From positions 512,001-576,000 of the forward strand of contig CAVZDU010000001.1 in the NCBI GenBank assembly GCA_963774265.1: DNA of 64,000 nt, read 5' to 3'. The stretch comes from an uncultured Chloroflexia bacterium (GTDB lineage: Bacteria > Chloroflexota > Anaerolineae > CG2-30-64-16). Both the position numbers and the translations under genes were made by a program. Under the pieces are notes generated by a model. It did no database searches, had not been told where the DNA came from, and saw only the letters and a list, made by a program, of their open reading frames with translations. Shown one piece after another: positions 15,850-64,000 of this stretch (the stretch's first letter is position 1; each line of letters starts with the position of its first letter).

Positions 15850-16815
15850 TACGAACAGAAGGTCTAACCAAGCATTTCCGGAGCGACGGCCGCGAAATTC
15901 ACGCCGTCGATGGCCTGGACCTGCAAGTGAGCGAGGGCGAGGTGTTCGGCTTTCTTGGCCCCAACGGTGCGGGCAAGACGACCACGGTGCGCCTGCTCAC
16001 CGGTCTGATCGGACCCACGAGTGGGCGCGCCTGGGTGAACGGCCTCGAGTTGGGCCGGGACGACGAAAAGATCCGGGCCAGCGTGGGCATCCTGACGGAG
16101 TCTCCCGGGCTGTATGAGCGCCTGAGCGCCAGATACAATCTCGAGATCTTCGCTGAGTTGTATGGCTGCCGAGATACGCAGGGGCAGGTTCAGAAGTACC
16201 TGCGCCTGCTAGACCTGTGGGATCGGCGCGACACAGAAGCCGGCACTTTTTCCAAAGGCATGAAGCAGAAACTGGCAATCGCACGGGCACTGCTCCATGA
16301 GCCGCCTGTCGTCTTTCTTGATGAACCGACCTGCGGCGCTGGATCCTGAGGCCGCCAAAACGGTGCGCGACTTCATCGAGACGCTCCGCGGCCAGGGTCG
16401 AACGATCTTCCTATGCACGCACAACCTGGACGAGGCCGAGCGGCTGTGCGACCGCATTGGGGTGTTCAAGCAACGACTGATTGCAGTCGACGCGCCGGAC
16501 ACCTTGCGCCGCCAGTTGTTCGGCCGGCAAACGGTCATCCACCTGGCGCCGGGCAGCCCGCTGGACCAGTTGGCCCTTGTCGTGGGCGGCTTAGCCGGCG
16601 TGAAGCACGTGCAGCCGATGGCGCCTGATAACAGCGGCTCAGCGCAATTGGTCATCAGTCTCAGTGATCCGGCGAGTCAGAACCCGGCAATCGTGCGAGC
16701 ATTGATCGAGCACGGCGCAGACGTTCAGTTTGTCAACGAGCTCAAGCATTCCTTGGAGGATGTCTACTTGAGCCTGATTCACGATGGTGCAGGGAATCAG
16801 GGAGGTGCGCGATGA
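15846..16815 (+). CDS. ABC-2 type exporter ATP-binding subunit (frameshift near 16332)
   Basis: GPNGAGKT, FSKGMKQK and FLDEPT. Removing one G from ACCTGCGGCGCTG restores DEPTSALDPE and joins it to the frame carrying CTHNLDEA. Confidence 0.88.
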
Positions 16816-27743: not shown

Positions 27744-28499
27744 TTGTTGACCGGTAAGCTGGAGGCCGCGCAGGCGCGCATTCGCGACCGCTGGTACCCT
27801 CACTTCTCATGGCTCGTAAATGATGAGACCCCATGGGTTGATTGCACCAAGCCATTGGCTGATTCAGCGTTCGCGTTGATCAGCACCTGCGGGGTCTATT
27901 GCGCCGACAGCCAGTTGCCTTTCGACGCCTGGAACGATCTCGGGGATTCGTCGTTCCGCGAGATTAATCTGGACACGCCTTCCGATCGGCTTGCGATTGC
28001 TCACACACATTACGACCATAAGCAGGTGGCCGCTGATGTAAACGTTGCATTTCCCATTGCGCACTTCCGGCGGCTGGCGGACGAAAAGGTGATCAAGCGG
28101 CTCCATCCCTGGGCTTATAGCTTCATGGGATACTTGCCTGAGCCGCATCAATTAATCACCCGATCGGGCCCGCAGGTTGCCCGGCGTCTCGCTGTCGAGG
28201 GGGTTGATGCGGTGTTTCTGACGCCGTGTTGACCGATCTGTCAACAGTCCGTGGGACTGATTGCTCGGGCCATCGAGGCGGAAGGTATTCCAACTGTGTG
28301 CGTGGTGATGAATCGCGACATCGCGGAAAACGTGGGCATTCCACGTGCACTCTTTGTGCGCTTTCCCTATGGCGCCCCGCTTGGCCCCGCAGGCAGCCCC
28401 GACACGCAGATGGCGGTGATCCGCGATGCGCTTGCCCTGTTGATGTCCGCCACCGCGCCGGGTACAGTTGTTGAATCTACGGTCGAATGGCCGGAGTAA
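27744..28499 (+). CDS. Selenoprotein, GrdB/PrdB-like reductase selenoprotein B family (Sec at TGA 28230-28232)
   Basis: ORFs 27744-28232 and 28251-28499 share a frame. Read-through gives VDAVFLTPC-U-PICQQSVGLIARAIEAEGIPTV. HTHYD..ADVN..FP and FPYGAPLG motifs; downstream hairpin. Confidence 0.88.
28233..28268 (+). promoter_or_regulatory. Candidate bacterial SECIS element
   Basis: CCGA..CAA-CAGTCC-GTG-GGACTG-A-TTG..TCGG directly 3' of UGA; G-first apical loop 18 nt after the UGA. Confidence 0.7.
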
Positions 28500-45621: not shown

Positions 45622-48222
45622 TTGTTGAATCGCACAGCCACCACCGCCTTAAACGTCACACTGAAAGGCTTCGAACGCACCCGTAGGCCGAAAACCGCAG
45701 GACGTCTGCGCCTGGATGGATTGCACGAATGGGTCGAGATCTTTCGCGATTCATGGGGCGTCCCCCACATCTACGCGCACAGCGCACATGACCTCCTCTT
45801 CGCGCAGGGCTTCGTTCACGCGCAGGATCGGCTATGGCAGATGGACTTCCAACGACGGGTGGTCGCTGGACGCCTGGCCGAGGTGCTGGGAGATATCGCC
45901 CTCCAGACAGATCGCGGCCTCCGCATTCTTGGCATGTATCGAGTCGCTGAGGCTGAAGTCGGCCTGCTCGGGGATGAAAGCCGGGTCGAGCTGGAGGCGT
46001 ACACGGCCGGCGTCAATGCGTGCATTGCGCGGCAGCCGCTTCCGGTTGAGTTCACGCTGCTGCGTTATCAACCCGAGCCGTGGACCCCGGCCGATTCGCT
46101 GTGCTGGGCGAAAATGATCTCGTGGGGCCTGTCCATCAACTGGGAGACAGAGCTGCTGCGGGCGCGTCTGATTGCCGAATTGGGTCCCGATCTGGCCGCA
46201 GAGCTGGAGCCGCCGCAGCCGTTTGGCACCTGGCCGATTGTCACAGCGGGCTTGGGCGGTAAGCTCTCCGAGCGCAGTTCCGAACAAAACGAAGGAACGC
46301 AGGGGGCGCTTGCGCCGCACGCGCTGCCGCACAGTGCAAGCAGGGATGCTCACCGCCCCCGGCCGACCGTCTCCGCGGGAATGGACCCTGACCCACGGTC
46401 CGCGGGTGGTTCGATGGGCAGCAACAACTGGGTCCTCGCCGGCTCGCGCACCGTGACCGGCAAACCAATCCTTGCCAACGACATGCATCTGCCACTCACG
46501 GCGCCTGCCATCTGGTACGAGAACCACCTGGTGTCGGCTGGCGAACCCGACGCGCTCGATGTCACAGGCATCACCTTTCCCGGCATCCCCTACGTTATCG
46601 CCGGGCACAACGGGCGGGTGGCCTGGGGCTTCACCAACGGCTACCCCGATGTGCAGGACCTTTACATGGAGCGCCTGCGCCGCACTCCGAGCGGAGTGCA
46701 GTTCGAGTACGACGGTGAGTGGCATGATGCGGAGGTGCATCGGGAGGAAATCCGGGTCAAGGGCAGCCCGTCCGTTGTTCAGGAAGTGATCGTCACCCGC
46801 CATGGTCCGATTATCAATGAATTGGCGCCAGGCCTGGCCACGGGCTTGGGGTCGGACGGTCTGCCTGAAGAGCCTCTCGCACTGCGATGGACCTCCCTCG
46901 ATCCCGCGACGATGGTTGAGGCTCTGCGCGTTATGAACCACAGCCGGACCTGTGATGAGTTTCGTGAGGCCCTGCGGCACTGGGTCGCGCCGGTGCAGAA
47001 CGTTGTCTATGCTGACACACACGGCGACATCGGCTACAGCTATCCTGGTCGTGTGCCGATCCGCGCAAAAGGAGATGGTCGTGTTCCTGTCCCTGGCTGG
47101 ACGAGCGAGCACGAATGGCTCGGCTACATCCCGTTTGACGAGCTGCCGCATCAAAAGAATCCGGCCTCCGGCTACGTGATCTCCGCGAATAACAGAGCGG
47201 TCGACGACAGATATCCATACTTCCTTGGCCGTGAGTTCGGTATGGGCGACAGGGCCGAGAGGATCCTTGCTTTGGTCGAGTCCACCCCGAGGATGGATGT
47301 CATTGATATTCGCAGGATGCACCTGGATCAAATCTCACCATCTCTGGGCCGGCTCGCGAGGCGCCTGGCCAGCCTGGAGGTTGCTGACCCTGCCTTGCAG
47401 GGCCTGGTGACCCTGGTCAAAGGGTGGGATGGCTGGCTGTCGGCCGACAGCCCGGCGACCTCCGTGTGTGAAGTGTTCGGACTGCTGTTGCAAAAGGTGG
47501 TCATGGAGGCGAAGCTCGACGCCGGGCGACAGGCCGACAGCGCCGGGCACACCCTTACACAGCGAGTCATGGGGGTCGGGCCCATGCCGGGTATACAAGA
47601 GGCCACCTTCTTCTCGCATCGCCTGTGGGAATGGATGTACACCGCGCTCGAACGGCCGGATTGGCACTGGTTTGACCTCGGCGGCGGGGAGAGGCGCGAC
47701 GATGTGATGCGCCTGGCGCTGCAGCGAACGTACGACTATCTGCAAGATCGGCTGGGTGAGCCCCAAATGCCGGATTATCACAGTTGGGCGTGGGGACGGC
47801 TGCACATGTTGACGTTTGGGCACGTGGCCGGCCGCGTGCCGGCCCTCGCGGGGCATTTCAACCGCGGCCCGTACCCGGTCGGGGGCGACGGGAATACCAT
47901 TTTTGCGACTGGCGGTGGGTTGACCGTCGAAGCGAGCACCGCGGTTATTGGGCCGCCGTTCAGGTTCATCGCGGATCTGTCAGATCTCTCGAAATGTTAT
48001 GGCTTGTTAGCGCCCGGCAATTCTGGCCGGCCGGACAGTCCGCACTACGATGATCAGATCGAGGCATGGTTCAAGGGGCAATACCATCCGATGCTCTACG
48101 CACGCGACGATGTTGAGCACGGCGCGCGCCATTGGTTGCTGCTTTCCCCGCAACAGCAAGTCACCGCCGCGTCAGGCCCCAGAGGAAGGCGGCTGCGGCT
48201 GCGACGAAAAGGCCAGTCGTGA
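45622..48222 (+). CDS. Penicillin acylase family (Ntn hydrolase, S45)
   Basis: RD.WGVPHI, AQDRLWQM, GSNNW, ANDMH, SANN and GNSG..SPHY.DQ motifs. Confidence 0.93.
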   Translation: MLNRTATTALNVTLKGFERTRRPKTAGRLRLDGLHEWVEIFRDSWGVPHIYAHSAHDLLFAQGFVHAQDRLWQMDFQRRVVAGRLAEVLGDIALQTDRGLRILGMYRVAEAEVGLLGDESRVELEAYTAGVNACIARQPLPVEFTLLRYQPEPWTPADSLCWAKMISWGLSINWETELLRARLIAELGPDLAAELEPPQPFGTWPIVTAGLGGKLSERSSEQNEGTQGALAPHALPHSASRDAHRPRPTVSAGMDPDPRSAGGSMGSNNWVLAGSRTVTGKPILANDMHLPLTAPAIWYENHLVSAGEPDALDVTGITFPGIPYVIAGHNGRVAWGFTNGYPDVQDLYMERLRRTPSGVQFEYDGEWHDAEVHREEIRVKGSPSVVQEVIVTRHGPIINELAPGLATGLGSDGLPEEPLALRWTSLDPATMVEALRVMNHSRTCDEFREALRHWVAPVQNVVYADTHGDIGYSYPGRVPIRAKGDGRVPVPGWTSEHEWLGYIPFDELPHQKNPASGYVISANNRAVDDRYPYFLGREFGMGDRAERILALVESTPRMDVIDIRRMHLDQISPSLGRLARRLASLEVADPALQGLVTLVKGWDGWLSADSPATSVCEVFGLLLQKVVMEAKLDAGRQADSAGHTLTQRVMGVGPMPGIQEATFFSHRLWEWMYTALERPDWHWFDLGGGERRDDVMRLALQRTYDYLQDRLGEPQMPDYHSWAWGRLHMLTFGHVAGRVPALAGHFNRGPYPVGGDGNTIFATGGGLTVEASTAVIGPPFRFIADLSDLSKCYGLLAPGNSGRPDSPHYDDQIEAWFKGQYHPMLYARDDVEHGARHWLLLSPQQQVTAASGPRGRRLRLRRKGQS

Positions 48223-49934
48223 CGGCGGTGGAGCCATCTGTTGAACGTAACACCACCCCCGCGATCAGAAGGCCTGCGGCGAATATCCCCCAGGTGAGCC
48301 TGTCCACAGCGCGTTCGAGACGGCGCACGGCCTTTGCAGCATCTGGGGCGAGCGCGGTTTGCTGCGTCAGCTCTCCCCGCTCGGCCGCGGTAAGGAGTCG
48401 ATCCAGCCGAGCAGGCAGCAGGAGCGCCAACTGCACCATTCTGCCCAACTCATCCAGGATGCCGCGCCAGTCGCGCGTGAGCTGGGCTGAAGCCAGTCGC
48501 TCGGCGAAGGGCAGTGTCGCGGCCCACGGATCGAAGTGTGGGTCGAGGGTCGTTGCCATGCCCGAGAGGATGGCGACCGCGCGCATGGCAAAAAGCACGT
48601 CCGTGGGAAATTGGAATGGCATCTCGTAGATGAGATCGCTGTACTCGCGTACCATGAACTGCGCCTGCTGCATGGCGACATCGCTGAGCTGCCCCATCCG
48701 TACGCCGCCGAACCGGGCGAACATGACCTCGTGCAATTCTTCGATGCGCTGTCGGTCCGCCCCAGGTAGCAACACCCCGGCATCGTAGTAGGCTTGCACC
48801 AGTCTCCGCGCATCTCGCGTCCCCACCGCAATGGCCACATCTCGCATGGCGCCGCGCATGCTCTCAGGGATCACCGCAACCATGCCGAAGTCAACGAAGA
48901 TCAGCCAGAATGGTCGGGGTGCATCGGGTCGGGCCTTGGGGTCCGGGTCCAGCGGGTGGATGAACAGGTTGCCCGGGTGCGGATCGGCATGGACGAAGCT
49001 GTGGACGAAGATTTGCTCCAGGTAGGTATCGTATAGCCTGCGGGCGACCTCCGCTCGGCTGATGCCTGCCGCTTCAATCGCCTTCAAATCATCGACCTTG
49101 ATGCTGGCGACATTCTCCAGGGTCAACACGCGTCGTGTGGTGTACTCCCAGAAGACATCTGCAATGTAGATGCCGTGATCGTTCGCGAAGTCACCTGCAA
49201 AACGGTCCGCATTGCGGCCTTCAGCGACGAAATCCAGTTCCAGCGCGCGTGGTGCGCGCGAATTCCTCATATAGCCGGTCAAGGTCCGCATGCCGGGTGA
49301 TCGGTCCGTAGAATTTGAGCCAGTTGGCGGCGAGCCGCAGCGCCGCCAGATCCGTCTCGACGAGCGACTCGATCCGCGGCCGTTGCACCTTGACCACCAC
49401 TTCCTCTCCGGTGTGTAATCGCGCCTGATGCACCTGGGCCAACGATGCCGCCGCTTGGGGCACGGGGGAGAGCCAGGCGTAGACCTCTTCGACCGATCGT
49501 TTGAATTCCTCCTCGATGACCCTGCGCACGTCGTCTAGCGTCTCGGCAGGCACCTCATCTTGCAGGCCGCGCAACTCCGCGGTGACCTCCGGTGGCAAGA
49601 CATCCACGCGAATGCTGAGAAACTGACCGAGCTTGATCAGTACACCGCCATAATGCAGCGCAAGCACACGGTAATGTCGGGCATGGCCGCGCCAACGCGG
49701 CAGGGTTGTGGAGCGCACGTAAGTGCGGAAGCCGGGCACATGCCCCAGGATCAGGTCCCAGGCGATAAACGAGAGGAAAACGCGGGCGAAGAAGAAGGCG
49801 ACGCGCAGGTAGCGGCCGCGATCGAGGGCTGGTGCAATGTTCTCCGAGGTTTGCACCAACTGGGCAAGCTCATCCAACACTGCCTGCCCGCCGGGCGCCG
49901 TTCTGGCGCGTCGAAAGCGGCGCCCTATCGTCAT
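48161..49934 (-). CDS. ABC1/UbiB (AarF) family kinase (frameshift near 49243)
   Basis: IKLGQ, LQD, AAS.AQVH and VVKVQRP in one frame; ELDF..EG, HADPHPGN and DFGM in the other. Confidence 0.9.
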
Positions 49935-53879: not shown

Positions 53880-56165
53880 ATGGCGCGCGACATCCTCGAT
53901 CTTGCAACGGCTGCGTGGCAGATGGGTCAGGTCCGCCGCCAGCCATTCACACCTCAGCCCATCGACGACCGTTCAGCGGTTGCCGGGTGGCTGCCCGCAC
54001 GCGTCCCAGGCGATGTTCGCGCTGATCTCCTGGCGGCTGGCCGCGTTTCCTCCCTGGATACACCGGGCGGCATCGAGCAGAGTGCATGGGTCGACGACCA
54101 CGATTGGTGGTATCGCACCGGGCTGGAAGCGGTCGATGGCAACACGTCGGTTGTTTTGGAGGCAGACGGCGTCGACTATTACAGCAGCGTCTGGCTCGAC
54201 GGCTACTGCCTTGCGCGGCACGCCGGCATGTTTGCCCGGCAATCGATCGTCCTCTCGCCATATCTCAACGCAGCCGGCCCACACGAGCTGGCGATTCGTG
54301 TGTGGGGCGGCGGGGCGCTGCCGCGCCTGCCAAATTCCACGTCGCGTCGCACGATGCGCACTTTGCTGGGCCGGTTAGGTCTGGCGACCGAGTATTTTCC
54401 AGACCGGATGGCGACTCCAAAGGCGCAGTTCAGCTTCGGTTGGGACTTCGCGCCACGCGTCTTGAGCACAGGGATCTGGGATGATATTCGACTGGTGCGC
54501 TGCCGGGGCGCCTATCTGGCGGACGCTTGGGCCTGGGCCGAGCCGCTATCCGGATTTGACGATCCGACGCCGGTGCGATGGCACATTCGTGTCAGGGTGC
54601 AGCGGTTGCATGAGGCCGCCCTGCGGCTGGACCTGATGATCTGTGATGCCGGGGGCGAGGCCGTTGAGGTGTCGGCCGGCCCCTATGCCCTGGCCGATGA
54701 GGTGGAGCAGTCGTTCACCGTTGATGCGCCGGCCGCGCGGCGCTGGTGGCCCTGGGATCAGGGCCATCCTCATCTTTACCGGGTTATCGTTCGCATCAGC
54801 GACGAGTCCGGCCCGGTTGATGAGATTGGGGTCACGGCTGGTGTTCGTACTGTGGAGCGCGGCCGGCTGGCGAACGGCCAGCCGTGGCGTTTCATCCTCA
54901 ATGGTCGTCCCATGTTTCTGCGCGGCGCCAACTGGGTTCCCACAGACATCTTGCCCGGCCGAGCCGGCCCGCACGACTACGCGCGTATGATCGGCCTCGC
55001 AAGGGATGCGGGCGTCAACTTCCTGCGCATCTGGGGCGGCGGCATCCGTGAGAAGGCCGCGTTCTGGGAACAATGTGACCGCCAGGGCATCATGGCCATG
55101 CAGGAGTTCCCCCTCGCCTGTTCGTTTCTTGATCACTATGGACGTGACGCCCAATACCTGGAGGTGCTCGCGTCCGAAGCTCAGGGGATCGTGCGCGCGC
55201 TGCGCGGGCGCCCTGCCTTGATCGCCTGGTGTGGTGGCAATGAAATCAGTCCGCAACGCGAACGGGTCCCGCTGCGTATTATTGAGCAGGTGCTTGTGGC
55301 TGAGGATGGCACGCGGCCGTGGATTCCTGCCTCTCCCTCCCAGGGCGACGTGCATCAGTGGGATGTCTGGCATGGCTTGGCGCCGTGGCAATCGCTTGAC
55401 CAGGTCAGGGCGCCGTTCATGAGCGAGTTTGGCCTGCAGGCGTTGCCGGATGTCAGCACCATTGCGACCTTCTTCGGCGCCGCCGCGCCACAGTCGCTGG
55501 ACGATGTGCGTTGGGTCGAGCGCAAGCTCCAGGCCGGCAAGATCCGCCATTACAGCGGGCCGATGGATGAGGCCGATTTGGTGGCCACAATTGGGGCCAC
55601 GCAACGTGCCCAGGCAGCAGGGCTGCAAAGGGGGATAGAGGCGTGTCGTCTGAGAAGGGAAGGCTCAGGGCACGCACATCCGTGCGGCGGTGTCGCGTTT
55701 TGGCAGTTCAATGAGCCGTGGCCGGCGGTGACGTGGGCGGTGGTTGATCGATGCGGGCAGCCCAAGGCTGCATATGCGATGCTGTGTCGCTCCTACCAGC
55801 CGCTGCTGATTGCCGCCAGGTTCGAGTGGCGCAACTGGCGCTCCGGAGACACATTCAACGCGAAGATCTGGTGGGTCAATGATGGGCCGGATCACTTTAC
55901 GGGGTGTGCTGTGAAGGCGGTCCTGGATGAAGAGTTGGTCTTGTCTGCGGACGGTCTGGTGATCCAGCCCGCTTCTGCGCAACGAGCCGGCGCTTTTGCC
56001 GTCACCCTGGCCGCTCGACCGTCGCAGCTGGAATTGACCTTGCTCTGCGACACTCGTGTCATCGCCGTTAACAGCTACGATCTCCGTGCCTATTTGCCGC
56101 CCAGGCAGCCCACGCGAGTATGGTTCATGCGTCGGGCCGCAGACCTGATGTTGCGAATCGGTTGA
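53880..56165 (+). CDS. Glycoside hydrolase family 2, beta-mannosidase-like
   Basis: FGWDF, RGANW, RIWGGG, WCGGNE, SEFG and WQFNE motifs. Confidence 0.9.
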   Translation: MARDILDLATAAWQMGQVRRQPFTPQPIDDRSAVAGWLPARVPGDVRADLLAAGRVSSLDTPGGIEQSAWVDDHDWWYRTGLEAVDGNTSVVLEADGVDYYSSVWLDGYCLARHAGMFARQSIVLSPYLNAAGPHELAIRVWGGGALPRLPNSTSRRTMRTLLGRLGLATEYFPDRMATPKAQFSFGWDFAPRVLSTGIWDDIRLVRCRGAYLADAWAWAEPLSGFDDPTPVRWHIRVRVQRLHEAALRLDLMICDAGGEAVEVSAGPYALADEVEQSFTVDAPAARRWWPWDQGHPHLYRVIVRISDESGPVDEIGVTAGVRTVERGRLANGQPWRFILNGRPMFLRGANWVPTDILPGRAGPHDYARMIGLARDAGVNFLRIWGGGIREKAAFWEQCDRQGIMAMQEFPLACSFLDHYGRDAQYLEVLASEAQGIVRALRGRPALIAWCGGNEISPQRERVPLRIIEQVLVAEDGTRPWIPASPSQGDVHQWDVWHGLAPWQSLDQVRAPFMSEFGLQALPDVSTIATFFGAAAPQSLDDVRWVERKLQAGKIRHYSGPMDEADLVATIGATQRAQAAGLQRGIEACRLRREGSGHAHPCGGVAFWQFNEPWPAVTWAVVDRCGQPKAAYAMLCRSYQPLLIAARFEWRNWRSGDTFNAKIWWVNDGPDHFTGCAVKAVLDEELVLSADGLVIQPASAQRAGAFAVTLAARPSQLELTLLCDTRVIAVNSYDLRAYLPPRQPTRVWFMRRAADLMLRIG

Positions 56166-56204
56166 CATATCGTTCTCGATCGACTATTCTCTCCGAGAAA
56201 TCGT

Positions 56205-57162
56205 ATGCGAATTGTCGTCAATGGTTGGTTTTGGAATCAAATGGCTACGGGAAGCGGGCAGTATCTGACCGCGCTCACAGAGACGTTGCCAGCGCGCCGG
56301 GCGCTCGCATGAGTTCATCCTGGTTTGCTCCCAAACTAACAAGGGCGCAGAGCGATTGCCGGAGGGTTGGCAGGTGGCGCATCTGGCGACGCCGTTCGAC
56401 CGGATAGGCAAGAATCTGGCAAAGCTCTGGTTCGAGCAGGTGACGTTTCCGCGAACATGTGTTCGTAGCGGGGCAGATGTGGCGTTCGTGCCCTATTGGG
56501 GTTCGCCCTGGTGGCGACCGTGCCCGGTTGTCGTGACGGTGCATGACTTGATTCCTTTGTTGCTCCCCCTCTATCAGGGTGGGGCTGCCCAGCGGGCCTA
56601 TACGCAGTTGGTGTCCCGAACCGCGCGGCGCGCATCGGCCGTGCTGACCGACTCCGAGGCGAGTCGTCAGGACATCATTCGTCATTTGCGCATTCCCGCA
56701 GAGCAAGTTCATGCGGTGCACCTGGCGGTAGCGCCGTCCAGCACCGGCCCGCTCACGCCCGAGCATCTCGCGGCCGTACGAGTTCGGTATGGCCTGCCTG
56801 AAGGCCCCATTCTGTTATACTTAGGCGGCTTTGACGTGCGCAAGAATCTTTTGCGGACGCTTGAAGGCTACGGCCGTCTTGCTGCCAGGTGCGCAGCCGA
56901 AGGAACGACCTTTCCCACGCTCGTGATCGCGGGTAAGTTGCCGGCGGTCGATTCGGCCATTGCGCCGGATCCCAGGCCGATGGTTGAACGGTTTGGCTTG
57001 GCGAACCGTGTCCATTTTGCAGGTTGGGTGGAGGAAGCGGACAAGCCTGCCCTGTACGCCCTTGCAGAAGGGTTCCTGTTTCTCAGCGAGTATGAGGGGT
57101 TTGGCCTGCCGGTGCTCGAAGCCATGGCGGGCGACTCCACGATCACGAAAGCGCTGGAGTAA
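56205..57162 (+). pseudogene. GT4 (group 1) glycosyltransferase, frameshifted near 56295 and C-terminally truncated
   Basis: MRIVVNGWF..TGSGQY start; VVTVHDLIP, RKN and EGFGLPVLEAMA, then GDSTITKALE* instead of the usual tail. Promoter TTGACA-17-TATTCT at 56162-56190. Confidence 0.7.
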
Positions 57163-57165
57163 CTC

Positions 57166-58554
57166 GTGCCTGATAATGCAAAATTGTCCCGCGCCGCACA
57201 CAACATCCTGGTCCATTCTTTTGGCCTGAGGCGAGACCAGAACTTGTTAATTTTCGCTGACATCACATCGCTGGATGTGATTGAGGTTGTGGCGCGGGTC
57301 GCGCGCGATCTCCACGTCACTACGACTGCTCTATTCGTGCCGCGGGTGCTGCAGCTCGATATGGGTCCGTTTGAGAGCCTGCCCCTGCCTACGGAGGCGG
57401 CGGTGCGTGAAGCGGATGCGATCCTGAGCTGTTTGTCCGATCATCCTGAGCACTTGCACTACCGGATGCGCGTGCTTCACGCCAGTTGGGGTCGTCGGGC
57501 GAAGCTGGCTCATGCCCCAGGCATGAGCGTCGAGATGCTCAGAACGCTGGACACTGACTACGCTGCTATCAGCGAGCAAGCCCAAATCCTCAGCCTTGCC
57601 CTTATCCTGGGCAAGCGCGTCGAAATCGTGACTACCGACAGCAGCCGTCGCGAGCACCGGCTCAGTGTGCGGGTGGGCGGTTGGGCTTATCCGCCGGGGA
57701 TCAATGACGGAATGATCCGTGAAGGCTCGTGGAGCACGCTTCCGCCAGGGGAAGTCAATTTCGTGCCCCGTGATGGGGATGGCCGCATCGTGGTCAACGG
57801 CTCAGTTCCTGGCAAGGTGCTCGGGCCGGGTGAGGAGCTATTGCTGACGTTTCGCGAGGGTCGGGTGGTGACGATCGAGCCGGAGGATAGCCCGGTCGCG
57901 CGTTACTTATACGAGTCGCAATTCATCTATGCAGAGCGTCGGGGCGACACAAACTGGTCGAACCTGGCTGAGGTTGGCTTCGGTCTGAATCCGGCGGTGC
58001 AAGACTTGACGGGGTTGGGCGTGGTGGATGAGAAAAAGGCCCACACGATCCACATCGCGCTCGGTAACAGCGCCGGCCTCGGCGGCGATGTCGAGTCGGT
58101 GATTCATTGCGACATGGTCGTCAAGAAGCCTACGGTTTATGTCAACGGCCGGCTGATCATGAAACGCGGCGACTGGCGGATCAATGAAGGCGACTGGCGG
58201 CTTGACCATCGCAGCGTCACTGTGCCGGTCGGGTGGTGGGAGAGCGTGAGTCAGGTGGGGCGTAGCGCTGCACGTACTGAGCGTGAGGGAGGCCGGTTGA
58301 CGTGTGTGTGGAACGCGGGCCGCGGCCGTTGGGACAGTGCACCGATCGGAGTGGAGCAAACGGCGCGTCTCGCGGCTCGCCTTTATGACCTGCTGCCTGA
58401 GAATGGCAGTCCTGTTAGTAGAGACCATATGATTTCCATCGCTGAGCAGGCGGGCATCCCTGCGATGGTGCTGCCGCGCCTGTGTTGGGTAATGGCTCAG
58501 TTCGATCTGGTTCGCATGGCGACTGCCCGCGAGCCATCGCTGCTGGCAACATAA
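57166..58554 (+). CDS. M29/aminopeptidase T-like metalloenzyme with ~110-aa C-terminal extension
   Basis: LPPGEV, LAEVGFG.NP, DEK..T.HIALG and S.IHCD metal-ligand motifs. Confidence 0.78.
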   Translation: MPDNAKLSRAAHNILVHSFGLRRDQNLLIFADITSLDVIEVVARVARDLHVTTTALFVPRVLQLDMGPFESLPLPTEAAVREADAILSCLSDHPEHLHYRMRVLHASWGRRAKLAHAPGMSVEMLRTLDTDYAAISEQAQILSLALILGKRVEIVTTDSSRREHRLSVRVGGWAYPPGINDGMIREGSWSTLPPGEVNFVPRDGDGRIVVNGSVPGKVLGPGEELLLTFREGRVVTIEPEDSPVARYLYESQFIYAERRGDTNWSNLAEVGFGLNPAVQDLTGLGVVDEKKAHTIHIALGNSAGLGGDVESVIHCDMVVKKPTVYVNGRLIMKRGDWRINEGDWRLDHRSVTVPVGWWESVSQVGRSAARTEREGGRLTCVWNAGRGRWDSAPIGVEQTARLAARLYDLLPENGSPVSRDHMISIAEQAGIPAMVLPRLCWVMAQFDLVRMATAREPSLLAT

Positions 58555-58581
58555 AAGACCGATGGGATTGAGGGGAGCGCT

Positions 58582-60120
58582 ATGAACGCGGTCAAAACCC
58601 CGTGGCGTCAGGCGATGCCGGAATTCCTGCAGTTGCTCGATGGGACCCTTGGGCACACGGTCCGGCTGCACGAAGAAGTGCTGGGCTATGACCTCTACTT
58701 TGTAGACCTGTCGGATTGGAAGCTGCGCTTCTCCGACCGCACACCCGTGATCTGGGTCAAGGAATCGGACCTGGCGGCGATGCACCGCGCGCGATCTGGC
58801 CCAGAGGCTGACTGACCTGGTGCGTGCACAGTCGCTGGTGGAGCGAAACCCGATTCTCGTGGTGCAGGGACCAGGGGGAGAGCTGAAGCAGCAGCTCAAG
58901 CCTCTTCTCAGCCGCTGTTGGTGCTCGACGAGGGGGACGTAAGTGCCGTGCGCGAGTCGCGACGGCCCTCGGGCGAGTTGCTCGATCGTCTGGCGCCGCA
59001 GCTCGACCTGTCACTGCTGACCCCCTATGAGACCAGCAAGCCGGTTACCGGCTCGCGATTCTTCGGCCGCGAATTCGAGGTGCGCCGGATCCTGCAAACC
59101 GGTGACAGCAACTTCGCGATCATGGGGATTCGGCGCATCGGCAAGACGTCGCTGATGCGCGAGATCGAGCGGCAGCTTAAGGAACAGGCACAAGATGCGG
59201 AAAGCGACGAATCCTTGGAGCGCATCATCTTCATGGATTGCAGCGCGATCTCGTCCCCGAATAGCTTTATCCAGGAGGTCGTGCGCAAGCTGCGGCCGCA
59301 AGAACTGACCCGCCTCTCGTCCAAGCAGTACCCCATTTTCTTCCCTGACTTCTTGGAACGAATGTCGCAGCGCTATGGGGGTCCGATTGTCTTTTTCCTC
59401 GATGAGTTCGACAAGGTGCTCACCTGGCACTATGAGGATGACTCCCTGCTAAATGCGTTGCGCGCTTCCAGCAACCAGGGTTACTCGCGTTACATCGTCG
59501 GCGGTTTTCGCGATGTCATGCGTGCGTTCAGTGATCTGGATTCGCCTCTTTACAACTTTGCCAGGCCGATCCGGCTCAAGGAATTCAGCCGTGAGCAGGC
59601 TGCAGCGATGATCCTCGGTCCCCTGGAGAGGCTGGGGGTGCAATTCGAGCGCCGGAACGATGTGGTCAATCGCATTTTCGACGAGACTGCGGGCCAACCG
59701 AACCTTATCCAGTTCTACTGCAGCATCCTGGTCGAACGGCTGGACCGTGAGGCCAGCCGGTCCGTCTCGCCCGAGAGCCTGTTCGACGTGTACGGCAATG
59801 ATGATTTCCGTGCATTTGTGCTAAGCACGTTCATGGATAACACGACGCATCTGGAAAAGGCCATCGTGTTCGCCGTGATGGCGGACCTGGGTGCAGAGCA
59901 TCCTTTCGGCGTCCAGCAGATCGACGGCGCCTTGGAGCGTCGCGGCGTGGAGATCCCGCTTTCGGATCTGGATTTGGCTTGCCGTAACCTGGAGCTGGCA
60001 GGTACGTTTACTTCGCGCGGTCCATTGTTCCGTTTCGCCACGCCTGTCTTCCCGAGAATGCTGAGCGAGAATTACGACGTGGACTACCTGTTCCGCAAAG
60101 TGTTACAGGAAGGCATCTAG
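58582..60120 (+). CDS. STAND-like P-loop ATPase with N-terminal domain (two compensating frameshifts near 58790 and 58905)
   Basis: PY..PV..FFGR, GIRRIGKTS, FFLDEFD and T.GQPNLIQ motifs; the middle frame reads DLAQRLTDLVRAQSLVERNPILVV. Confidence 0.8.
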
Positions 60121-60123
60121 CTC

Positions 60124-62958
60124 ATGGCAGACGGTGCGCCACCCTGGCGTGTGGTTCCCTACGAAGAGGCATCGCCGTTCAAAAAGGTGCGTGTGCGCGA
60201 TGAAGCGCGGGTGCGCACGGTCGTGCGGCGCCTGATGAACGACGAGTGTGTTGCTCTGTTGGGCCCACCGATGAGCGAAAAAAGCCGCTTGCTGCGCGAC
60301 GTGGCTGAAGAGCTGCTGCAAAGCGGTCGTTACCGGCCGCTGCACATAGACTTGTGGCGCACCCGGTCGAACGATGAGGCGGCTTTCTTCACAAGCCTGG
60401 CGGATCTGATTGCCAGTGAGCTGGGAGACGCCGCTCCGCGCGCTCCCGTGGAGTGTGGCGAAGCAATCGCAGACGCGCGTAGCTTCCAGGGTTATCTGGC
60501 GCAGGCCGCGAATAGCAGCAATACGAACATCGCTCTGCTGATCGATCACCTGCAAGCGTTGCCTCATGATCTCGTGCACAGCTTGCTCGTCGCGCTGCGT
60601 GCCGCGTACATGGAGCGCGAGGCAGATGCGCCGCACAGCCTGGTCGCGGTGGTCGCTGGCGGCATGAACCTGGTAGGTCTCTCCACCGGCCCTACCTCGC
60701 CGTTCAACATCGCGAAACCCGTGGTCGCCGAGCCCTTGACGGTGGAGCAAAGCCGCGCGCTTGCGGCGGCATCGCTGGAGGCCCTAGAGTGTTCGGCATC
60801 GGCACGCGGCATGGAGCGTCTCGTCCAATGGGGTGCAGGCGACCGCTACCTGATCACGCGACTGTGTGCGGATAGCTCAGAATTGGTCCGGCTGCACCGC
60901 CATCGCCGGGTGACGTCGGCGATTGTGGAGCGGGCCGGCGCGGCGCTTGTCGCGCACGGATCGCCGCCGCCGGTGCGCGCTGCCATCCGCATGATCGAGG
61001 AGGACCCGGACACTGTTTTGGATGTCCTCCACCTGTTGGATAATGACTCGTTGCCGCGTACACGCTCGCGCCAGGCGCCCACTCGCACCGGCACGGATCG
61101 CCTGCAGCTTTCCGGAGCTGTCATCCTGGCCGACGGATGTTACATGTTCATGAACGAGGTCTACCGGAGGGCCTTGGCCGCGCATTTCACAACGGATCGG
61201 GTTGGTCACGTGTTGCGGATTGCCGGACGTTGGAGCGAGGCGATTGCCTATCTGGCGCCGCGGCGCGCCCAGTTGGCCCGCCCCCAGCTTCTTGAAGCCA
61301 TCGTTCAGTCGATTTATGCAAGTGACTCGTCAGAGCAGGCGTATGGGTTGCTGGCCGACGGTCTGCGCTTTGGTTTCGGCCTGGCCGACATTGGCATCTA
61401 CCGCGCGCATCCCGCCGCGGCGCTGCTGCAACAGGTCTACCCGGCGGCCAGCAACGGACAGCCGGTGCATGTTGACCTGCGCGATCCCGGCTGCGTCGAA
61501 GCCCAGACGTTCAACTTGGGTAACTATGCCCTGCGGGGCAGCGCAGACGAGGCGCGCCTGGTGGTTTGCCTTGCCTCCACCGTTCGATCGCTCGGCGTGG
61601 TAACTGTTGAGCACTACGTGCAGGACCGCGATCCTCACGAGCTTCCCGACGAACTGCCGGACCTGCTGCGTTTTCTGCAGCATGCAGCGGGTGCGCTGGA
61701 AAACGTGATCACCCGTGGGGCCTACCGCGCCATCGGACAGGCCGTCCTCGATGCCAAGGCCATGCAGCCAACCGTCGAGCGTGTTCTTGACACGGTTGCT
61801 GAGGCGCTAGGGTGCGACTACGGCGTGTTGTACCTGACGGATGATGCGCGCCGCCAGCTTGATATGGCAGCCGGCGTCGGCACAGTGGTCACCCAGGAAT
61901 GGCAGGCGCAAGCGCACTTTCCCCTGAACGGCCAGCATCCTGCTGTCACTGCACTGACAGGCGCCCGGATGATCACCGCGCGCGGCGGCGAGGATGCGCA
62001 GGACCGTGCTTTATTCGATCGTTTTGGCCTCCATCGCTACGTGCGCGTGTTTTTGCCTCTGGCGGCCGGGGGTGAACAGCTCGGCGTCTTGGAGCTCGGC
62101 TACGCGGTCGGGCGCGCGCGCCTCTCTGACGAGCACAAACGGACCCTCTCGGCCTTTGCCGATCAGGTGGCCATTGCCGTACACAACATGCTGCTGCTGC
62201 GGCGGACGGATGAGGCATTAGCCCGGAAGCTGGCAGAGCTGTCGGTTGGACGAGAAATTCAATTGAGCTTGCTGCCGAAAGCGTGTCCCACGATCCCCGG
62301 TTGGCAATTTGAGGCTGTCTATCAGGCCGCGCGTACGGTCGGAGGTGACTTCTACGATTTCTGTGATCTGCCCGGCCCACCCGCCCGCCTTGGCGTTGTG
62401 ATCGCTGACGTGGCCGATAAGGGTGTGCCTGCTGCGTTGTTCATGGCATTAAGCAGGACAATCATTCGCAGCGTAGCTTTTACCGGCCGAGGTCCTGCGT
62501 CCGCGCTCATGCGCGCAAACCAACTGATTCTGGCCGACAGTCAGTCCGATTTGTTCTTGAGCGCGGTATACCTGGTGATCGAAACCGGCACGGGTCGTGT
62601 TTCTTACACCAACGCGGGTCACACCCGGCCGCTGCTTTACCGTGCGGCGAGCGGCGTGCTGAGCGAACTGACCCAGCGCGGCATCATCTTGGGTACGTTT
62701 GAGGAGATCACGTTGCGGGATGACCGCGTGGATCTTGCGCCAGGCGATGTGTTGGTGCTCTACACCGATGGGGTCACCGACGCGCTCAACGCTGACGGTG
62801 AGGAGTTCGGCGAGCAACGCTTGTTCGATGTGATAACGGCACACGCCAGGGGCAGCGCGCAGGAGATCCTGTGGGCGATCACCGGTGCGCTGGCGGGTTT
62901 CATCGACGGCACGGAGCCGGCTGACGACGTGACGTGTGTCGTTATCAAGCGCGGTTAA
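60124..62958 (+). CDS. Degenerate STAND-like domain, GAF domain(s) and PP2C/SpoIIE phosphatase
   Basis: LLGPPMSEKS, LLIDHL and SPFNI; GAF FADQVAIA; PP2C VGGDFYD, IADVADKG, NAGH, YTDG and DD.T motifs. Confidence 0.85.
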   Translation: MADGAPPWRVVPYEEASPFKKVRVRDEARVRTVVRRLMNDECVALLGPPMSEKSRLLRDVAEELLQSGRYRPLHIDLWRTRSNDEAAFFTSLADLIASELGDAAPRAPVECGEAIADARSFQGYLAQAANSSNTNIALLIDHLQALPHDLVHSLLVALRAAYMEREADAPHSLVAVVAGGMNLVGLSTGPTSPFNIAKPVVAEPLTVEQSRALAAASLEALECSASARGMERLVQWGAGDRYLITRLCADSSELVRLHRHRRVTSAIVERAGAALVAHGSPPPVRAAIRMIEEDPDTVLDVLHLLDNDSLPRTRSRQAPTRTGTDRLQLSGAVILADGCYMFMNEVYRRALAAHFTTDRVGHVLRIAGRWSEAIAYLAPRRAQLARPQLLEAIVQSIYASDSSEQAYGLLADGLRFGFGLADIGIYRAHPAAALLQQVYPAASNGQPVHVDLRDPGCVEAQTFNLGNYALRGSADEARLVVCLASTVRSLGVVTVEHYVQDRDPHELPDELPDLLRFLQHAAGALENVITRGAYRAIGQAVLDAKAMQPTVERVLDTVAEALGCDYGVLYLTDDARRQLDMAAGVGTVVTQEWQAQAHFPLNGQHPAVTALTGARMITARGGEDAQDRALFDRFGLHRYVRVFLPLAAGGEQLGVLELGYAVGRARLSDEHKRTLSAFADQVAIAVHNMLLLRRTDEALARKLAELSVGREIQLSLLPKACPTIPGWQFEAVYQAARTVGGDFYDFCDLPGPPARLGVVIADVADKGVPAALFMALSRTIIRSVAFTGRGPASALMRANQLILADSQSDLFLSAVYLVIETGTGRVSYTNAGHTRPLLYRAASGVLSELTQRGIILGTFEEITLRDDRVDLAPGDVLVLYTDGVTDALNADGEEFGEQRLFDVITAHARGSAQEILWAITGALAGFIDGTEPADDVTCVVIKRG

Positions 62959-62985
62959 TCAAGCGCGGCTAATCAAGCGCGGTTA
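62944..62985. repeat. Three 14-bp tandem repeats ATCAAGCGCGGYTA
   Basis: Read directly; spans the stop codons of both convergent genes. Confidence 0.9.
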
Positions 62986-64000
62986 GGGATCGAGTCGCGC
63001 ACCTGTCACCGGCAGAAAGGCCGGTCCATTGACCACATCCGACCGGAACCGCGGAATGATCTGGTAGCCGCTGTCGGTCGTTTTCTCCCCAACATACTGT
63101 CCCAACACGCCTTGCGCCGCCCATGTCTCCCCGATGTTGACATACGGCCGGCGCCAGGACAGGCTCTCCGGGAAGTAGATGCGAATTATCCCGCCCCTGT
63201 CCTTGAGCACCAGCGCCTGGGGCTCGAATTTGATGACGGCCCCAACCACCTGCACGAGATGCCCTTCGTTGGCCTCAATGAGTCCAGCCGAGGTCACTGG
63301 CGCCGGAGTGATCGCTTTGCCGGGTCCAAGATAGGTCAGGTAGCTTGGGTCCGGGACAGACAATTCGGTCTCACCGTAGAAATTGCGCGTCCAACCAGTG
63401 ACCCGCACCTGGTCGCCCAGAGCCAGCTTGCCATACTCGCCCGATCGCAAGTAGATCTTGATGCCCCCCGTCGCGTCCTCCAAGTAGATCGTCTTCGGGA
63501 TGAGCCCCGGCGGAAACGTGACACTGCCGGTGATGGTTGCGCGCGTATCCTCGGGGGCCGCGCGTGCCGCGGCGACTGTTTGAGGGACTGTCGCAGTGGG
63601 GGCGACGTAACTCGTTCCGGATGACGGCGGCGATGACGGCCGCAGCCGGTTCGCTGCTCCAGGCGTAACCTCACAGTCGCCCGTCCATTCCCCTGTCCCG
63701 TCCCCGTCGCGGCAGTAGCTGCGATCATCACCGGGACCACCATTGTAGGTGAATTGGTCCGCCAGCGCCCCGTCGCTCCGCGTCAAGGTGATGGTGTCGC
63801 GCCAATCCCCAAGCGAAAGGCGAGTTTGCGCCCGATACAACAGCAGGAAGCTATGCGGCCAGATGACTGTGCCCGCGGGGAGCCTGTACGTACTGGTATC
63901 ATCCGAGATCGTCCAGCCATCCAGCGCCGCAGGCGATGGCGCGGCGTTATACAGTTCGATCCATTCATCCGCAAAAGTGGCCTCCCCATCGTTGTCCCAG
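62983..64000 (-). CDS. Lamin-tail domain plus two OB-fold protein (partial, starts beyond the window)
   Basis: Frame is open to the edge: DEWIELYN..LDGWTISD; OB-like IYLEDATGGI..GDQVRVTG; ends FLPVTGARLDP. Confidence 0.8.
   Translation of the reverse strand, partial: WDNDGEATFADEWIELYNAAPSPAALDGWTISDDTSTYRLPAGTVIWPHSFLLLYRAQTRLSLGDWRDTITLTRSDGALADQFTYNGGPGDDRSYCRDGDGTGEWTGDCEVTPGAANRLRPSSPPSSGTSYVAPTATVPQTVAAARAAPEDTRATITGSVTFPPGLIPKTIYLEDATGGIKIYLRSGEYGKLALGDQVRVTGWTRNFYGETELSVPDPSYLTYLGPGKAITPAPVTSAGLIEANEGHLVQVVGAVIKFEPQALVLKDRGGIIRIYFPESLSWRRPYVNIGETWAAQGVLGQYVGEKTTDSGYQIIPRFRSDVVNGPAFLPVTGARLDP

Follow-up and report, generated by a model that had tools for sequence, protein, structure and literature searches.

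We analysed a 64-kb window (the whole stretch, positions 512001-576000) of a 5.5-Mb, 10-contig metagenome-assembled genome (MAG), 84% complete, from an uncultured Chloroflexia bacterium; the database names of close homologues put it in Anaerolineae (Chloroflexota). Near the end of the window lie three consecutive forward-strand genes, which we call pep, A and B. The first, pep (57166..58554), encodes an M29/NicX-fold metalloenzyme-like protein of 462 amino acids, assigned from an open reading frame (ORF), profile comparison, an AlphaFold2 (AF2) predicted fold and conserved ligand positions. The second, A (58582..60120), encodes a STAND-type P-loop NTPase of about 512 amino acids when intact, recognized by Pfam and by its orthologues and interrupted in the window. 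The third and longest, B (60124..62958), is an open ORF for a protein of 944 amino acids in which a degenerate NTPase module is followed by a GAF-like region, a GAF domain and a PP2C domain. The genes are packed as tightly as a preliminary description of this DNA had reported, with 27 nt between the pep stop codon (58554) and the ATG at 58582, and 3 nt between the TAG of A (60118-60120) and the ATG of B at 60124.

Paired NTPase modules in A and B

The open part of A scored above the cut-offs of two Pfam families, AAA_22 (40.2 bits against 27) and nSTAND1 (PF20703; 39.7 bits against 27.1). Direct reading of the motifs over 59125..59412 gave a Walker A motif, GIRRIGKT (59125-59148), and a Walker B motif, FFLDEFD (59392-59412), both intact as previously described. 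They follow the GxxxxGKT and hhhhDE patterns, and G182, K188, T189, D274 and E275 were invariant among 16 sequences. A ribosome-binding-site-like GAGGGGAG stands ahead of the A ATG. The orthologue of A occurs once in the genome, with two weak A-like matches elsewhere, and relatives of A (E <=1e-40) were found in 16 of 151 genomes sampled from the class. Of the genes in the block A is the best conserved, with identities of 92-96% within the genus and 72-89% across the genera of the family, and the ratio of nonsynonymous to synonymous substitution rates (dN/dS) was 0.031 for A and 0.06-0.10 for pep and B.

The N-terminus of the window B alone gave only a match to the Pfam family ATPase_2 with an E-value of 0.0033, while its homologue in a Litorilinea aerophila MAG (locus L040) reached 40.1 bits for AAA_35 (PF14516; cut-off 27). 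When A and B were compared by hhalign, residues 145-502 of A aligned with residues 9-359 of B (60148..61200) at a probability of 98.2% and an E-value of 4.9e-14 over 329 columns, and the PYE motif, Walker A, Walker B, SPxxNxA and the C-terminal helix-strand motifs were all in register. By this sequence comparison, the first ~360 residues of B are a paralogue of the NTPase and winged-helix module of A, and the P-loop relationship earlier suggested for the third protein is thereby upheld. The catalytic motifs of B are degenerate, with GPPMSEKS (60262-60285) at the Walker A position and LLIDHLQ (60535-60555), which includes IDHL, at the Walker B position. We read these motifs in 42 relatives belonging to one of the two deep clades of the family (clade i, described below), and 39 were kept after removal of two rows in which the match fell on A and one frameshifted row. 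None of the 39 relatives has the second glycine of Walker A, in whose place 34 have Glu, and the lysine was lost in one; the Walker B pair read DH in 35, DS in two, DD in two and DE in none. The canonical catalytic motifs GK[ST] and D-E were thus not found in B, and because the degeneracy is conserved across the clade, it does not represent decay.

The C-terminal part of B carries signalling domains, which together with the degenerate motifs agree with what the preliminary description had read. The GAF domain spans residues 549-688 (61768..62187; Pfam GAF_2 1.3e-12, 48.5 bits over residues 550-687 against a cut-off of 28.6; GAF_3 1.3e-10; GAF 2.5e-10). It is followed by a PP2C domain of SpoIIE/RsbU type at residues 753-943 (62380..62952; Pfam SpoIIE, PF07228, 1.7e-50, 172.1 bits), for which the match covers profile positions 2-191 of 192. 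The Asp motifs of the phosphatase are all present, namely GGDFYD (62341), ADVADKG (62404), YTDGVTD (62761) and ADDVT (62920). B is present as a single copy in the genome.

The preliminary description had overlooked an in-frame TGA in A at 58813-58815, so that the frame 58582-60120 is not open. DNA alignment with six intact orthologues, and blastn against locus L024 (the G002 locus), showed that the TGA lies between two compensating one-base indels, an extra base near 58783 and a missing base near 58897, which put about 37 codons (58783..58897) out of frame. The longest open A frame in the window runs from 58816 or 58918 to 60120 (434 or 400 amino acids), while the open frames of 11 orthologues in other genomes measure 514-572 amino acids. 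It is possible, if somewhat doubtful, that the indels are real and that this strain has lost, or is losing, a working cassette, with A reduced to a 77-residue stub and an N-terminally truncated ATPase. In keeping with a real lesion, both indels, between which the TGA lies, are absent from all six aligned orthologues and from the contigs of a relative (run X2); among public sequencing runs the best share of sampled words was 0.13 and the four runs examined contain relatives only, so no run matched this strain. However, translation of the shifted stretch in the frame of the orthologues still gives the conserved peptide (ARDLAQ...VVQGPG...), and its 37 codons showed a dN/dS of 0.15-0.17 at a dS of 0.6-1.0, compared with 0.09-0.24 for the rest of the N-domain. 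Because the two values are alike, any break in A must be very recent, and pep, B and the remainder of A are undamaged. A second gene of the window also carries a single-base frame break that is not in G002: an ABC1 atypical-kinase gene (48161-49934, reverse strand) is split by an extra base at 49244 into overlapping ORFs of 376 (48161-49291) and 237 amino acids (49221-49934), where G002 has one 590-amino-acid ORF, and the Pfam ABC1 match is divided at about position 105. Many such breaks affect the same genes in the near-complete-contig MAGs of relatives, where the whole cassette of L044 (G007) and pep and GH2 of L038 (G001), both few-contig assemblies, fall into many frame-shifted pieces. An assembly error is the moderately probable cause of the break in A, and long-standing decay is probably less likely than an error of sequencing or assembly or a lesion of very recent date.

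Other irregular frames were noticed on the way. At 15846-16815 (forward strand), an ABC-transporter ATPase ORF of 167 amino acids with a complete ABC_tran match overlaps a following ORF of 172 amino acids that has no Pfam match, and the gene looks frame-broken. At 27744-28232 (forward strand), an ORF of 162 amino acids matches only the C-terminal end of GRDB, the glycine/sarcosine/betaine reductase selenoprotein B, and the upstream part of the gene may be separated from it by an in-frame TGA (selenocysteine) or by a break of the frame. The pep copy of Caldilineaceae (L041:10001-11362) contains one in-frame stop.

Upstream of its NTPase region, A carries an N-terminal domain (58582..58986) that measures 135 residues in orthologues, is specific to this family and is cut by the two indels in the window. 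It was represented by 74 sequences among 1.84 billion proteins, and the full-length ones (~500-520 amino acids) carry it at the N-terminus. A Pfam search of 18 members gave no family common to more than one of them, and the domain profile matched nothing significantly in the PDB. The AF2 model of the domain from the G002 orthologue (pLDDT 86.5) has the topology alpha-beta-beta-beta-alpha-beta-alpha-beta-alpha. When the model was compared with 48,161 chains by VIA, the top row was AF1548 (1y88; Z 8.2, 105 residues, root-mean-square deviation (rmsd) 3.6), followed by Cdn1, Can2, Card1, FokI, BspD6I, VC1899 and XisH at Z 5.8-6.7. By their names, the majority of the top 16 rows represent nucleases of the restriction-endonuclease-like fold, at Z-scores of 5-7, a range typical of common arrangements. 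The best Foldseek match was XisH (2inb) with an E-value of 0.035, and the Atlas leads, PD-(D/E)xK families at 0.77-0.81, were at chance level. A restriction-endonuclease-like fold is the best reading of the model, because the nuclease-fold matches are consistent despite their low Z-scores. D42 and D63 were invariant and K47 was conserved in at least 90% of the sequences, but a conserved (D/E)xK was not found in the third strand, where residues 59-61 vary, as does residue 45. The nuclease-like N-terminus that had been considered for the ATPase therefore has tentative support at the level of the fold only (AF2, VIA and Foldseek), while the canonical (D/E)xK is not conserved; we do not call the domain an active nuclease, though it might have a rearranged site.

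The M29/NicX-fold protein

The preliminary description had named the first gene product an M29 peptidase. Single-sequence searches with the window pep returned nothing significant from Pfam, NCBIfam or the PDB, and against Pfam M29 (PF02073) it reached 10.7 bits with an E-value of 0.23 over residues 5-50 only, below the cut-off of 27 bits. Relatives of the same architecture scored higher, with 37.1 bits in L046 and 32.1 bits in P0100, which both pass, and 25.3 bits in L077. We found 124 homologues of pep, many of which are labelled aminopeptidase or aminopeptidase T in the source databases. A profile of 38 pep sequences then matched NicX (7cn3, E 1.4e-16), AmpT (2ayi, 8.8e-5) and PepS (4icq, 2.2e-4) in the PDB. 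The AF2 model of pep (pLDDT 92.7) gave the same families in Foldseek, with E-values of 5.4e-19 for NicX, 3.5e-15 for PepS and 4.6e-14 for AmpT. In VIA, NicX was matched at Z 30.5 (317 residues, rmsd 3.1), AmpT at Z 22.5 (307 residues, rmsd 3.6), AmpS (1zjc) at Z 22.2, and CgnE (6zsu) and CgnB (6zsv) at Z 16.6 and 16.1. All matches lie within residues 1-342 (57166-58191), the catalytic-type domain, which in the model has the same fold as all of these proteins.

Five positions of pep line up in the profile alignment with the EE, E, H and HxD of AmpT, namely E196 (57751), E269 (57970), H296 (58051), H314 (58105) and D316 (58111). We take the aligned AmpT positions (Glu, Glu, His and His-x-Asp) to be the metal ligands of the M29 family. 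E269, H296 and D316 do not vary among the 38 sequences, and E196 and H314 are retained in at least 90% of them. The NicX metal site presumably differs, with a His ligand in ISHIGWG and no His at the HIALG position. In the alignment to 7cn3, the His of ISHIGWG corresponds to an invariant Glu in the pep family, as it does in aminopeptidases, and the pep family keeps the His of HIALG where NicX reads FLFSTG. The NicX-type dioxygenase ligand pattern is thus not found in pep, although NicX is the best match by fold. Judged by its aligned residues, pep appears to keep a complete aminopeptidase-type metal site, and the M29 assignment draws on the profile, the predicted fold and the relatives.

We also considered that pep might not be a peptidase but a NicX-like oxygenase or another small-molecule enzyme, which would make or sense a metabolite for the GAF domain of B, or else a non-catalytic peptide binder like CgnB and CgnE. 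NicX is the nearest solved structure both by profile and by fold, CgnE and CgnB are matched as well, and the window pep itself falls under the M29 cut-off. Set against these points are the invariant Glu at the NicX His position and the retained HIALG His, the conservation of all five aminopeptidase-type positions, and the relatives in L046 and P0100 that clear the cut-off, and we consider a function of this kind unlikely. The designation as an M29 peptidase accordingly holds for the fold, the five ligand positions and an extra C-terminal segment of about 120 residues, and fails at the Pfam threshold. Compared with AmpT, AmpS and PepS, pep has all five aminopeptidase ligand positions; it differs from the M29 enzymes in its very low sequence similarity, in an overall fold nearer to NicX, in the added C-terminal domain and in the operon linkage of its gene to STAND genes.

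The C-terminal extension (residues 343-462; 58192..58551) lies beyond every M29/NicX structural match. In the AF2 model four beta strands come first, then three helices and one more strand (DSSP), and pep relatives of ~320 amino acids are without it. Its profile found nothing significant in the PDB, where the best row was the Z-alpha winged helix of ZBP1 at an E-value of 0.9, and the Atlas lead, a PqqD-like cluster at 0.76, was at chance level. The extension may be a winged helix, conceivably one of the peptide-recognition (RRE-like) kind. No conserved small ORF was found upstream of pep in seven distant loci.

Linkage and clades of the A/B family

Linkage was assessed in three sets of loci. 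In the A-side set of nine orthologous loci, B lies directly after A in all nine and pep lies upstream in eight. The pep-anchored set comprises 23 loci on GTDB contigs, with one genome per species, and several of its genomes are those of the A-side set; L028 ends inside pep and L035 inside A, and both were excluded accordingly. In this set B comes next after A in all 21 assessable loci, and A next after pep in all 22, among them loci with different flanks from Litorilinea, Caldilineaceae (L041) and an unclassified Chloroflexota MAG. The third set holds 26 metagenome loci recovered with A, in one of which (L095) A is cut after residue 207. B was judged only where the locus reaches >300 nt beyond A, and it follows A in 19 of 19 such loci, while pep is upstream in 15 of 23 assessable ones. 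At the A-B junction, a gap of 2-3 nt or an overlap of 4-7 nt was seen in the window and in L024, L040, L041, L046, L075, L076 and L077. The co-occurrence on which the preliminary description relied is therefore borne out for A and B, which are constantly paired, and for pep followed by A, but pep is not obligate. It is missing from 8 of the 23 metagenome loci and from L021, L075 and L076, and a search of the whole of genome G012, 97% complete and with A and B at the L021 locus, did not find it. In 400 other sampled genomes of the phylum, pep-type proteins (E <=1e-30) were not found. We regard pep as a frequent accessory that is dispensable.

Within the window's own family, and only there, the block keeps the synteny GH2-GT-pep-A-B-LTD, where GT is a glycosyltransferase and LTD a lamin-tail-domain protein, and linkage within that family alone proves little. 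The three genes might then be mere neighbours by descent without a functional link. The trio, however, is retained where every flanking gene differs (L039-L041, L045, L046 and L077), in L077 even at identities of 34%, 33% and 25%, and its stop and start codons overlap or almost abut. Trees of A, the N-terminal module of B and pep share the same major clades, with branches of B several-fold longer than those of A. Functionally unlinked descent is thus very improbable.

The tree of A falls into two deep clades with support 100/100. In clade i, A carries the 135-residue N-domain and B combines degenerate motifs with GAF-type outputs, and pep is present in 16 of 18 rows, the deepest row included. 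As output, B carries PP2C in L075 and throughout the Anaerolineales group, and HATPase_c (histidine kinase) in L040, L041, L076 and L077, while the B of L046 shows GAF domains only. A receiver gene follows B in several of these loci, encoding REC-TCAD9 in L040, L041, L046 and L076 and REC-Trans_reg_C in L077, and REC-TCAD9 also follows B in four metagenome loci. The PP2C-type locus L037 also has a REC-TCAD9 gene, on the opposite strand and two genes further downstream (L037:6994-8574, reverse strand), so this partner may not be confined to the histidine-kinase variants. In clade ii, A has other N-termini (such as BNR/sortilin propellers or ~330-amino-acid regions without assignment) and pep is absent. 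The B proteins of clade ii have canonical GKT and DE motifs and carry TIR (L023), CHAT (L078 and L079), a transmembrane tail (L022) or no tail (L082).

Pairs of a short (~430-490 amino acids) and a long ATPase (~1060-1200 amino acids) were tried as further A/B pairs and rejected, as they belong to a different family and neither member matches B. These pairs were seen in loci L047-L054 (G014:C4, G024:C9, G018:C280, G019:C319, G012:C6, G016:C6, G021:C157 and G031:C17), and both members are ~25% identical to the NTPase region of A.

The neighbours of the cassette are conserved at closer range. A short glycosyltransferase of GT4/GT1 type (56356..57162, forward strand; 268 amino acids, partial Pfam matches) ends 3 nt before pep; closer relatives have it ahead of pep as well, and it does not precede pep in L037, L039-L041, L045, L046 and L077. 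The sequence GGAG occurs within the last codons of this gene, ahead of pep. A promoter-like TTGACA-17-TATTCT lies at 56162-56190, and the scan gave no more such sites than expected by chance; repeat, promoter and terminator scans found nothing exceeding chance, and Rfam found no family over 50-64 kb of the window. Downstream, a convergent gene (62983-63999, reverse strand) for an LTD protein with an OB-fold match runs past the end of the window and is conserved beside the cassette in closer relatives.

A proposed signalling cassette and its alternatives

We propose, at roughly even probability, that the block acts as a conserved signalling cassette with two paralogous STAND-type NTPase modules at its core, in which a heteromeric active/inactive switch would gate phospho-signalling and pep would serve as an accessory input. 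Linkage, paralogy, motif states, domain identities and purifying selection are established and form the base of this proposal. From them we infer a hetero-oligomer, which way control runs, what pep contributes and what is targeted. A and B would assemble as a hetero-oligomer through their NTPase and winged-helix modules, and ATP would be turned over by A alone, the module of B acting as a fixed-state partner that couples the state of A and the ligand of the GAF domain to the phosphatase. The nucleotide state of A and the GAF ligand of B would then set the activity of the B phosphatase on a phospho-Ser/Thr protein encoded elsewhere. The pep protein would most likely trim or bind a peptide or protein N-terminus that serves as input. 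Its partner may plausibly be the N-domain of A, because pep occurs only with A proteins that have this domain. A complex prediction for pep (G002 orthologue) and the A N-domain gave a score of 0.00 without controls, which is no evidence either way.

Regulatory signalling in general has about an even chance of being the role of the block, and it is favoured because the genes are vertically inherited under strong purifying selection. The outputs are of signalling type, with PP2C in the window and, in relatives, HATPase_c followed by a REC-TCAD9 or REC-Trans_reg_C gene. Several observations weigh against such a signalling switch. The pep gene is absent from the loci named above. STAS, the expected neighbour of a partner-switching phosphatase, was not found near the PP2C gene in the window, and the nearest STAS on the contig is ~357 kb away. 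The genome has seven STAS matches elsewhere, and three of its eight other PP2C genes lie 1-3.5 kb from small STAS genes. An RsbW-type partner beside PP2C was not seen in the window scans, in which the RsbW family was not searched separately. REC-TCAD9 or TCAD9 above the cut-off was not found in this 84%-complete genome. Furthermore, A would be split in this strain if the two indels were real. The remaining adverse points would suit a conflict system instead. They are the nuclease-like N-terminal domain of A, the TIR and CHAT domains that B carries in the sister clade, the partner domain TCAD9 (described in Pfam as 'Ternary complex associated domain 9') and the defence genes directly upstream of the cassette in L040, L076 and L077.

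A conflict role of some kind is rather less probable, and its concrete form, to which we likewise give a fairly low probability, is an anti-invader system of NLR/STAND type in which the N-domain of A would be the effector, B a sensing or regulatory subunit and pep a processing enzyme or decoy, with the phospho-outputs relaying an alarm. The restriction-endonuclease-like model of the N-domain, with Can2, Card1 and Cdn1 among its top VIA rows, fits this idea, as do TIR (L023) and CHAT (L078 and L079) on the B of the sister A/B clade and the REC-TCAD9 partners after B in the kinase variants. The nSTAND1 clade, whose threshold A exceeds, is named in counter-invader systems in PMC8195603. The defence genes upstream are Septu (PtuA and PtuB) and Hma (HmaB, the GmrSD-type protein HEC-05 and HmaC) at L040:47-9542, a divergent type IIG restriction-modification gene at L076:9416-12352 and an HmaB-like methylase in L077. 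Against it, A, B and pep, for which the preliminary description had allowed a conflict system, matched no known system in PADLOC-DB 2.0.0; A gave only weak P-loop-level matches to PDC-S27 and PDC-S01 (E ~2e-4 to 7e-4), pep and B gave none, and on relatives only TIR and CHAT effector models were matched, so that A and B match no PADLOC 2.0 system beyond effector domains. Relatives of A are missing from viral contigs and phages, with one distant plasmid match. Each genome has one cassette, and its synteny with GH2, GT and LTD is kept across the genera of the family. An arms-race gene would not usually show the low dN/dS of A or its high identity within the genus. The N-domain has no conserved (D/E)xK in its third strand, the only conserved residues of the domain being D42, K47 and D63, and the outputs of B are ordinary signalling domains here.

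A reading that joins the two is distinctly unlikely but specific. On this view a two-subunit A/B STAND machine would have been domesticated in the branch to which the cassette belongs, yielding a cytoplasmic receptor for peptides or protein N-termini of a kind undescribed in bacteria. The sister branch would have kept TIR and CHAT death effectors, and here B would have lost ATP hydrolysis and become a scaffold for GAF-gated phospho-outputs, either PP2C or a histidine kinase with a REC-kinase-like partner. A would keep its ATPase and its nuclease-fold domain, the latter now serving as a docking or sensing module for the M29-type peptide-trimming enzyme.

Avs-type antiviral STAND proteins, or bacterial NLR-like proteins, combine an N-terminal nuclease effector, a STAND NTPase and a winged helix. 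A resembles them in its putative nuclease-fold N-domain, STAND NTPase and winged helix, and the sister clade carries TIR and CHAT. It differs in having neither C-terminal sensor repeats nor a conserved (D/E)xK, in being always paired with a degenerate paralogue, in its vertical inheritance and strong conservation, and in its absence from PADLOC. B shares with RsbU/SpoIIE partner-switching a complete SpoIIE-type PP2C after a GAF domain, but no STAS gene lies in the window, and sister lineages swap PP2C for a histidine kinase and receiver gene.

Single-chain STAND-GAF-PP2C proteins are a catalogued architecture (PMC12599244). Like B, single-chain STAND (AAA_16 / COG3899)-TPR-GAF-PP2C/kinase proteins, among them the Leptospira-type kinase-AAA_16-GAF-PP2C giants, and MalT/PknK-type proteins link a STAND NTPase to a signalling output, and they are reported to be cytoplasmic, with a mechanism that has been little studied. 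By comparison, the NTPase of B is an AAA_35-like module with fixed degenerate Walker motifs and has no kinase or TPR region; a separate active paralogue with a nuclease-like N-domain always stands immediately upstream, usually preceded by the M29-fold gene. The iSTAND ternary systems (PMC7159879; Kaur, Burroughs, Iyer, Aravind 2020) are also encoded by three genes, in which an inactive STAND with effector or adaptor domains stands beside a separate active AAA+ ATPase. There, the active partner is a MoxR protein with vWA and not a paralogous STAND, and the effectors at the iSTAND N-terminus are TIR, caspase, trypsin or EAD. The main text of PMC7159879 mentions no M29 or aminopeptidase, and no GAF, PP2C or histidine kinase tied to iSTAND, though its supplements may differ; likewise the main text of PMC8195603 has no M29 or aminopeptidase, while its supplementary catalogue may list the architecture. 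In agreement with the earlier statement that no described system of this composition was known, a literature search on TCAD9, nSTAND and ternary systems, AAA_35 and M29 with STAND, GAF and PP2C found no description of the trio in main texts, and supplementary catalogues may list it. Three features seem not to have been described, namely the division into one active and one degenerate paralogue, the presence of a putative nuclease-fold domain on the former, and the M29-fold partner.

STAND NTPases are usually treated as single-chain, homo-oligomerising switches. The constant adjacency of A and B, with modular N-termini on A and modular C-termini on B, points instead to an obligate heteromeric STAND design, which would be nearer to the mixed active and inactive subunits of ORC or clamp loaders than to an NLR. 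Switches of this kind are not known to take a peptidase-type input, which the linked M29-fold enzyme would add. Judged by their domains, all the parts are soluble proteins of the cytoplasm, and since intact orthologues exist, these predictions can be tested at the bench. With TIR and CHAT in one clade and PP2C and histidine kinase outputs in the other, the same A/B scaffold would offer a testable case of exchange between immune-type and housekeeping-type signalling.

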